Source of the DNA: Afipia sp.
GTDB lineage: Bacteria; Pseudomonadota; Alphaproteobacteria; Rhizobiales; Xanthobacteraceae
Length of the DNA: 64,000 bases
Assembly (NCBI GenBank): GCA_051653085.1
Contig: JBOFVL010000046.1
Coordinates: forward strand, 5,749 to 69,748
Reading direction: 5' to 3'
Part shown: positions 39,002 to 39,202 of the stretch, one piece after another
How positions within the stretch are numbered: the stretch's first letter is position 1
Layout of the letters: the number at the start of each line of letters is the position of its first letter
The notes under the pieces: model-generated
What the model saw: the letters and a program-made list of their open reading frames with translations, nothing else
Told to the model about the DNA's origin: nothing
Databases searched by the model: none
Made by a program: the position numbers and the translations under genes

Positions 39002-39140
39002 GAAAAAAGGCCGGGCTAAAGAGCCCGGCCTGTTTAGTTTTTGGCCACGTGAGGCCGACACAATCACCTTCCAAGAGGGATAACTGAATGCGCACGCCGC
39101 TGGAGGAGGGGGACAATGTGCGAACGCGCTCACTCAGTGT
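39002..39140 (-). ncRNA. Candidate AbcR-like anti-Shine-Dalgarno sRNA
   Basis: 5' hairpin with CCCCCUCCUCC loop, second hairpin with UCCCUC, GC-rich terminator plus U6; own promoter; syntenic with lsrB/vtlR. Confidence 0.7.
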
Positions 39141-39146
39141 GAAGGG

Positions 39147-39202
39147 AGTATGATCCTCGCCGTCCCATGCGGACAACTCCGATCCCGGTATGTCAGTCAT
39201 GC
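39147..39202 (-). promoter_or_regulatory. sRNA promoter (TTGTCC-N18-CATACT) and LsrB-type box
   Basis: -35 at 39176-39171, -10 at 39152-39147; GCATGACTGACAT (39202-39190) fits GCAT-N3-TG-N3-T. Confidence 0.55.

Follow-up and report, generated by a model that had tools for sequence, protein, structure and literature searches.

The window (the whole 64-kb stretch of Afipia DNA analyzed here) carries on its minus strand trxB, encoding thioredoxin reductase (40309..41367; TIGR01292, 412.7 bits), a lsrB/vtlR-type LysR regulator gene (39383..40312) recognized by homology to LsrB and presumed to encode an activator, and a predicted small RNA (sRNA) of ~138 nt (39003..39140). The gene order on this strand is trxB-lsrB-sRNA, with trxB as the upstream partner of lsrB, and copA converges on the array from the other side. 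The nearest relatives of the window LysR protein come from Afipia, with 97% identity to the protein of A. clevelandensis. A preliminary description of this DNA had proposed an unannotated AbcR-like anti-Shine-Dalgarno RNA with its own promoter and an LsrB-type box, and sequence reading found all the elements that it listed for the sRNA unit in place on the minus strand of 39002-39205. Palindromic repeat units of ~150-180 nt occupy the region between the lsrB stop and the LsrB box (39238-39386).

The unit starts with an LsrB/VtlR-type box, GCATGACTGACAT (39190..39202, running from 39202 to 39190 on the minus strand), which spans -62 to -50 relative to the inferred start. The motif GCAT-N3-TG-N3-T of the preliminary description agrees with the published LsrB consensus and its position at -61 to -49 of PabcR1 (PMC8844928; PMC7486931), and the window box fits it as claimed. 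The promoter TTGTCC-N18-CATACT is likewise present and conserved: a -35-like hexamer, TTGTCC (39171..39176), and a -10-like hexamer, CATACT (39147..39152), which is kept across related loci, are separated by 18 nt. Together they match 8 of the 12 sigma-70 consensus positions and are conserved nonetheless; a generic promoter scan of the window did not call the sRNA promoter. The start was placed at A39140 by collinearity with the first position of ar15, the family of AbcR1 (alpha-r15, RF02345) that includes Smr15C2/SmrC16 of S. meliloti, AbcR1 of A. tumefaciens, and the VtlR-dependent AbcR of Brucella. The 3' end falls within a U-run.

The predicted RNA opens with hairpin 1 (39083..39138), formed by the arms ACUGAGUG (39138-39131) and CAUUCAGU (39090-39083), which holds in its loop a putative anti-Shine-Dalgarno seed, CCCCCUCCUCC (seed 1; 39102..39112), at the position of AbcR motif M1. 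The linker GUUAUCCCUCUUGGAAGGUGAUU (39062..39084), which we read as single-stranded, includes a second seed with an invariant core at the position of AbcR motif M2, with UCCCUC at 39080-39075 of the minus strand. In the AbcR RNAs, M1 is CUCCCA in loop 1 and M2 is GUUCCC in the linker (PMC5461406). Hairpin 2, GGCC UCACGU GGCC (39043..39056), was identified from the RNAfold structure and compensatory changes; an A/U-rich (A-rich) spacer separates it from an intrinsic terminator (39003..39031) with a 10-bp G+C-rich stem (39031-39008), a CUUU loop, and a U6 tail. The terminator (39008-39031) scores on the plus strand too, with the tail GTTTAGTTTT, 49 nt past the copA stop. It may also serve the convergent copA and halt read-through from lsrB. 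As only 25 of 80 related loci have copA downstream, the terminator is assigned to the RNA and not to copA.

These related loci are the 80 closest ones, fetched by the LysR protein from Afipia, Bradyrhizobium, and their relatives, all of one family. The whole ~200-nt unit (box, promoter, RNA, and terminator) lies directly behind lsrB in every one of them. The box is kept throughout, in 78 loci as GCAT-N3-TG-N3-T and in two with AG; its distance to the -10 hexamer is 50 nt in 71 of 79 loci, and the hexamer itself is CATACT, CATAAT, or CATAGT in 73 of 79. The aligned sequences show little or no variation in the box GCATGnCTGACAT, GTTG, and CATAnT, the GTTG core being invariant at the -35 position. 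The box is part of a near-palindrome, which in Bradyrhizobium takes the form GCATGTC-T-GACATGC. As a degenerate motif, GCAT-N3-TG-N3-T is no rarer than chance in the window (8 matches versus 9.3 expected), and the weight given to the box thus comes from its conservation in 80/80 loci at a fixed distance from the -10 hexamer, not from rarity.

The gap between the lsrB stop and the box measures 4-5 nt in most Bradyrhizobium and up to ~200 nt elsewhere, reaching ~180-200 nt where repeat elements were inserted, the window among these cases, and 17-200 nt in other relatives. The spacing of box, promoter, and RNA is fixed, and across the 80 loci insertions never fall between them. Such a variable gap in front of a never-split unit speaks for box, promoter, and RNA functioning as a single entity that is distinct from the lsrB coding region. 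Within the RNA, the 16-nt loop UGUCCCCCUCCUCCAG varies little or not at all among 66 distinct sequences; the 40 nt from AUCCCUC to GGCC are conserved to the same degree, and the stems vary. In two community samples (X3 and X7), the invariant 30-nt core (39042-39071) joins contigs that continue into a Bradyrhizobium-type terminator, and several organisms per sample therefore carry the same RNA core. A Nitrobacter metagenome-assembled genome (L205, 2425-2571) has trxB and lsrB followed by a 147-nt gap that contains neither the box nor a match to the covariance model of the RNA described below; in this one genome, the absence of the RNA may reflect lineage-specific loss.

The predicted fold of the 138-nt RNA is more stable than expected from its composition (-55.6 kcal/mol versus -40.8 +/- 3.7 for shuffled sequences; z = -4.0), with none of 200 shuffles as good in RNAfold. 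RNAalifold applied to the 66 distinct sequences yielded 29 pairs, 10 of them with compensatory changes. A five-family alignment was then used, comprising 57 distinct sequences from the Afipia/Bradyrhizobium clade, Stappia, Microvirga, Pleomorphomonas, and metagenome relatives. In this alignment, which was fitted to the covariance model and is thus biased toward its structure, 91.8% of cells are paired compared to 75% in shuffles, both partners have changed in 20 of 29 pairs, and the covariation score is 0.46 versus 0.18, with 0/500 shuffles as high. When the partners were slid by 1-3 columns as a control, pairing fell to 29-52%.

The covariation is distributed unevenly over the helices of this alignment. 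All 10 pairs of hairpin 1 (helices 1 and 2) changed on both sides, all four pairs of hairpin 2 (helix 4) have compensatory changes across families, and so do six of nine pairs of the terminator (helix 5). The predicted hairpin 1, hairpin 2, and terminator are thereby each backed by covariation. The 5' hairpin with a C-rich loop and the 10-bp terminator with its U6 tail, both already noted in the preliminary description, hold up, with the qualification that the inner register of hairpin 1 in the minimum free energy (MFE) fold differs slightly from the CGCAC/GUGCG pairing given there; the C-rich motif is in the loop either way. The second hairpin that had been drawn around UCCCUC fares less well. 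It does appear in the MFE fold, but none of the pairs in the helix over AUCCCUC (helix 3) changes on both sides, and one pair is disrupted in 33 of the 57 sequences. Given that the enclosing helix lacks covariation and has one frequently broken pair, the UCCCUC motif probably lies in a linker that is single-stranded and not in the loop of a hairpin.

The Rfam comparison suggested earlier, with ar15 and the Bradyrhizobium BjrC families, gave no assignment. With Rfam 15, ar15 (RF02345) had no match in the window at its gathering score (40 bits) and none even at E <= 10 in 38900-39450 (551 nt), and the BjrC families had none at the gathering score or at E <= 10. At gathering scores, the only Rfam match in the 64-kb window is one tRNA. 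Among weaker matches, SorX (RF02784) reached 22.4 bits (E 0.005; gathering score, 46.6) over 39003-39081, mostly the terminator and AUCCCUC; suhB/mmgR reached 21 bits (gathering, 41), ar35 20 bits (gathering, 45), and alpha-r14/NfeR1 (RF02344) 18.7 bits (E 0.28; gathering, 58.8). The SorX, suhB, ar35, and ar14 matches, which are weak and driven largely by the terminator, were not used for assignment. In control searches, the ar15 model scored true members at 70-120 bits and an intermediate RNA from Pleomorphomonas at 29.9 bits, below the cut-off of 40. The ar15 model is probably too narrow, and the window RNA is too diverged for it to be detected.

We searched in the opposite direction with a covariance model, denoted R1, built from Afipia/Bradyrhizobium copies only and containing no ar15 sequence. 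The window RNA scores 149.7 bits against R1, which has one match in the 64-kb window and one per locus in the 80 relatives. Beyond this clade, R1 has matches behind lsrB in Stappia (40 bits), Microvirga (34), and Pleomorphomonas (30.5), the last being the RNA also scored with ar15, and the gene order in all three is Lrp, an Elm1-like gene, trxB, lsrB, and the intergenic RNA. The sequence of the Xanthobacteraceae locus L084 ends at the lsrB stop. Scanning metagenomes for the ar15 linker motif CAGCTGTTCCCCTCTGG gave 80 loci, 40 of which R1 scores at 28-50 bits. Sixteen metagenome loci were run through Rfam, and 11 of these hold ar15 RNAs at gathering scores, most at 100-120 bits; seven of these 11 true ar15 RNAs align with R1 along their entire length, with scores of 19-23 bits (E 3e-4 to 4e-3 in 495 kb). 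In a small R1 search, two of three true ar15 loci were recovered (E = 2e-5 to 5e-5 in 38 kb), and the third was missed. Homology between the R1 group and ar15 is thus detectable, though only weakly so for the most distant pair, and the putative Stappia, Microvirga, and Pleomorphomonas RNAs, judged by their sequences, bridge the true ar15 RNAs and the Nitrobacteraceae form. In these alignments, the seed 1 loop corresponds to the ar15 loop CCUCCCAG and the linker to ar15 GUUCCCCUCUGGAGGU.

The surroundings of the two RNAs correspond as well. In the Rhizobiaceae, the chromosomal AbcR1 locus is the intergenic region adjoining lsrB/vtlR, and true ar15 loci consist of trxB and lsrB followed, on the same strand, by one to three copies of ar15. 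The window LsrB is 54-56% identical overall to the LsrB proteins encoded beside true ar15 and 75-79% identical in the winged helix, with a nearly unchanged recognition helix (LSQSAVSRQVSALE in the window versus LSQSAISRQVSALE beside true ar15). The promoter of the lsrB-proximal ar15 copy reads GCATG(G/C/A)CTG(A/T)CAT at -61, ATTG(T/C), CCATA(T/C), six bases, and AGCUGA; that of the window RNA reads box at -62, GTTGTC, CATACT, six bases, and ACACUGAG. Distal ar15 copies in true loci lack the box and have the promoter ATTGAAAGC...CCCATATC. This division agrees with that published for S. meliloti, in which AbcR1 is LsrB-dependent, and AbcR2 is RpoH1-dependent (PMC8844928). Because it has a box-type promoter, the window RNA is equated with AbcR1 and not with AbcR2. 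Four metagenome loci with true ar15 (L127, L128, L133, and L136) contain two or three tandem copies behind lsrB; the box is carried by the lsrB-proximal copy in L127, L133, and L136 and by the first and third of the three copies in L128, and the box-less copies of L127 and L133 have a ATTGAAAGC...CCCATATC promoter that is RpoH-like.

Compared with AbcR1, the window RNA has the same location right behind trxB-lsrB on the same strand, the same arrangement of an LsrB/VtlR box ~61 nt before the start, a TTG -35 element, a CATA -10 element, and an A start six bases on, and the same layout of three hairpins in which the first loop and the unpaired stretch joining hairpins 1 and 2 each carry a C/U-rich motif. 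The single-stranded CCCUCU linker followed by GGA(A)GGU, the A/U-rich spacer, and the terminator with a U tail are shared, too. The differences concern mostly the seeds and the middle of the molecule. The window RNA is ~25 nt longer (~138 versus ~112 nt); its loop seed is CCCCCUCCUCCA (CCUCCUCCA) instead of CUCCCA, and its linker seed is GUUAUCCC (GUAAUCCC in Bradyrhizobium) instead of GUUCCC, the linker of the Afipia/Bradyrhizobium RNAs reading GU(U/A)AUCCC. Hairpin 2 of ar15 (UGGAGGU/ACCUUCA) is replaced by GGCC/GGCC, which leaves GGAAGGUGAU unpaired, and no tandem sibling accompanies the RNA within the 64-kb window. With AbcR2, the lsrB-distal sibling, the window RNA shares architecture and anti-Shine-Dalgarno logic but differs in its box-type promoter, the distal copies being box-less.

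The RNAs of Stappia, Microvirga, and Pleomorphomonas, together with ~40 metagenome relatives, are unnamed and score below the ar15 gathering threshold. Like the window RNA, they occupy the lsrB-linked slot, have the box or a variant of it at -61/-62, and match R1 at 28-50 bits; their linker, GUUCCCCUCUGGAAGGUGAU, has GGAAGGUGAU in common with the window RNA, and the sequence of their hairpin 2 differs from it. Stappia, Microvirga, and true ar15 retain the canonical CUCCCA and GUUCCC, unlike the window RNA. SorX and alpha-r14/NfeR1 resemble the window RNA in being alphaproteobacterial anti-Shine-Dalgarno RNAs, and the SorX model starts with AUCCCUC and ends in a GGCCGGGC terminator similar to that of the window RNA; both differ from it in genomic context and in their regulators as published, and the matches are diffuse or limited to the 3' part.

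The regulator differs in one respect. The C144 and C273 pair of A. tumefaciens LsrB has been reported as conserved, with C273 important for H2O2 resistance. The window LsrB, unlike the Agrobacterium, Sinorhizobium, and Brucella proteins, lacks this pair: among the residues examined (152, 178, 245, and 281), it has Val at the C144 and C273 positions, retains the C236 equivalent (C245), and has a C178 of its own. Bradyrhizobium LsrB shows the same cysteine pattern as the window protein, Stappia LsrB has no cysteine at all, and the LsrB proteins of L136 and L128 have the four cysteines of the Agrobacterium protein. The redox-sensing mechanism of Agrobacterium might thus fail to apply in these lineages, and because equivalents of the cysteine pair are missing from LsrB, the input signal could differ.

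We consider it likely that this stretch is an independent sRNA gene, the Nitrobacteraceae (Afipia/Bradyrhizobium) orthologue of AbcR1 (alpha-r15). The claim of an AbcR-like RNA beside lsrB is supported by synteny, the collinear promoter, and the R1 matches; the published seeds do not recur letter for letter. In terms of classification, the RNA is a divergent AbcR1 orthologue outside RF02345 as the family now stands, and it was not filed in that family because it does not reach the curated score and does not have the exact seeds. By analogy with its better studied counterparts, the RNA is probably activated by LsrB and probably masks ribosome-binding sites. In such a circuit, LsrB would bind the near-palindromic box centered ~56 nt before the start and activate a sigma-70-type promoter, and transcription from about A39140 to the intrinsic terminator would yield the ~138-nt RNA, with read-through from lsrB as a possible second route to the same 3' end. 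The RNA is predicted to fold into hairpin 1, the single-stranded linker, hairpin 2, the A/U-rich spacer, and the terminator with its U tail. Loop 1 would present the C/U-rich stretch CCCCCUCCUCC and the linker a second one, AUCCCUC; both could bind ribosome-binding sites of the GGAGG type, or sites within coding regions, in a large number of mRNAs. The targets would presumably be chiefly mRNAs for the periplasmic binding proteins that serve ABC transporters. Such pairing would prevent translation initiation and speed up mRNA decay, probably with the help of Hfq, whose signatures in alpha-r15 have been described as an A/U-rich spacer and a U tail. The pairing and target steps are modeled on experiments with AbcR1/2 in Agrobacterium, Sinorhizobium, and Brucella.

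Transcription of the region is evident from public runs, the data being assembled contigs that carry neither direction nor local depth. Transcript ends were sought in these contigs, and no discrete RNA was seen. Bradyrhizobium transcriptome contigs (X53 and X60) extend from lsrB through the RNA to 110-130 nt past the terminator, and another (X54) begins before the predicted -35 element; read-through from lsrB is likely. In a run that contains the sequence of the window itself (X10), a 151-nt contig (38987-39137) abuts a contig starting at 39139, a junction that is suggestive at most. The unbroken contigs, and the start of X54 upstream of the -35 element, are what would be expected if the RNA were mainly the 3' UTR of lsrB with its terminator, made by read-through and processing instead of from a promoter of its own and perhaps acting only in cis or not at all, and in most Bradyrhizobium the box begins 5 nt past the lsrB stop with no terminator in between. 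Such contigs, lacking direction and local depth, are also compatible with a strong internal start. The -35 and -10 elements, with spacings kept across 80 loci, match true AbcR1 promoters; insertions of up to ~200 nt separate lsrB from the box and never the box, promoter, and RNA from each other; and an invariant 16-nt loop and 40-nt core are not needed by a plain terminator. We regard the 3' UTR explanation as distinctly unlikely.

Very unlikely, in our judgment, is membership in another anti-Shine-Dalgarno family, alpha-r14/NfeR1 or SorX-like, with a chance location beside lsrB. The loop CCUCCUCC does resemble the CCUCCUCCC loops described for SmelA075-type RNAs, and the weak Rfam matches to SorX, suhB/mmgR, ar35, and ar14 point the same way, but these scores are far under gathering and come largely from the terminator; a CCUCCUCCC-type motif is present in loop 1 only, not in three loops as in alpha-r14; and synteny, box, promoter, the linker CCCUCU(U)GGA(A)GGU, and the chain of model matches all favor ar15. 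The stretch almost certainly does not encode a small protein. Open reading frames of 56 aa (38963-39133) and 97 aa (38907-39200), both on the list of open reading frames, overlap the RNA, and a Shine-Dalgarno-like GGAAGGUGAU precedes a GUG codon. Both frames run through the terminator, however, 1- and 2-nt indels in hairpin 1 and the spacer leave no frame intact, and a short UUG frame that ends inside the window RNA has no stop in Bradyrhizobium.

AbcR RNAs and LsrB/VtlR control nutrient uptake, root colonization, and virulence in Sinorhizobium, Agrobacterium, and Brucella. A survey of the alpha-r15 family lists the Rhizobiaceae, the Brucellaceae, and the Phyllobacteriaceae (on plasmids) and does not mention the Bradyrhizobiaceae; AbcR goes unmentioned in the papers on Bradyrhizobium sRNAs and start sites, and we found no description of AbcR for Bradyrhizobium or Afipia. 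The readable parts of the supplements (BjsR1-10 and tables of transcription start sites) contain no sequence match to the RNA. The finding extends known biology and introduces no new principle. The presence of the module, with changed seeds, in every sampled Bradyrhizobium/Afipia genome would offer a testable regulator-sRNA pair in the main soybean symbiont, and the series from Rhizobiaceae through Stappia/Microvirga to Nitrobacteraceae would allow the drift of seeds and regulons under a fixed promoter logic to be studied.

A broader reading, which we put forward tentatively and hold to be rather improbable, is that a cassette of lsrB and an anti-Shine-Dalgarno RNA is ancestral to Hyphomicrobiales, perhaps more widely, instead of being peculiar to Rhizobiaceae and Brucellaceae, and was re-tooled in Nitrobacteraceae. 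The re-tooling, equally doubtful and to be taken as a whole, would combine reduction to a single RNA whose loop seed grew into a longer, alpha-r14-like anti-Shine-Dalgarno sequence, a second seed that is followed, and possibly masked, by the invariant Shine-Dalgarno-like GGAAGGUGAU, and an LsrB without the redox cysteine pair. If true, the re-tooled circuit would answer a different signal, and its set of mRNAs would differ from that of AbcR1 and could be broader.

A duplex-energy search within the 64-kb window identified no target for the RNA. The best non-self duplex site, CGCUGGAGGAGGAGGG (41665-41692, plus strand; -33.5 kcal/mol), is complementary to the loop and lies in an lrp (Lrp/AsnC) gene; the LEEEG residues of the helix-turn-helix are encoded there, synonymous positions differ freely between relatives, and the match is probably a coincidence. 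The best non-self partner of the linker seed, CAGGAGGGAGAGAUUGG (48403-48430, plus strand; -21.4 kcal/mol), is located just before tRNA-Cys.
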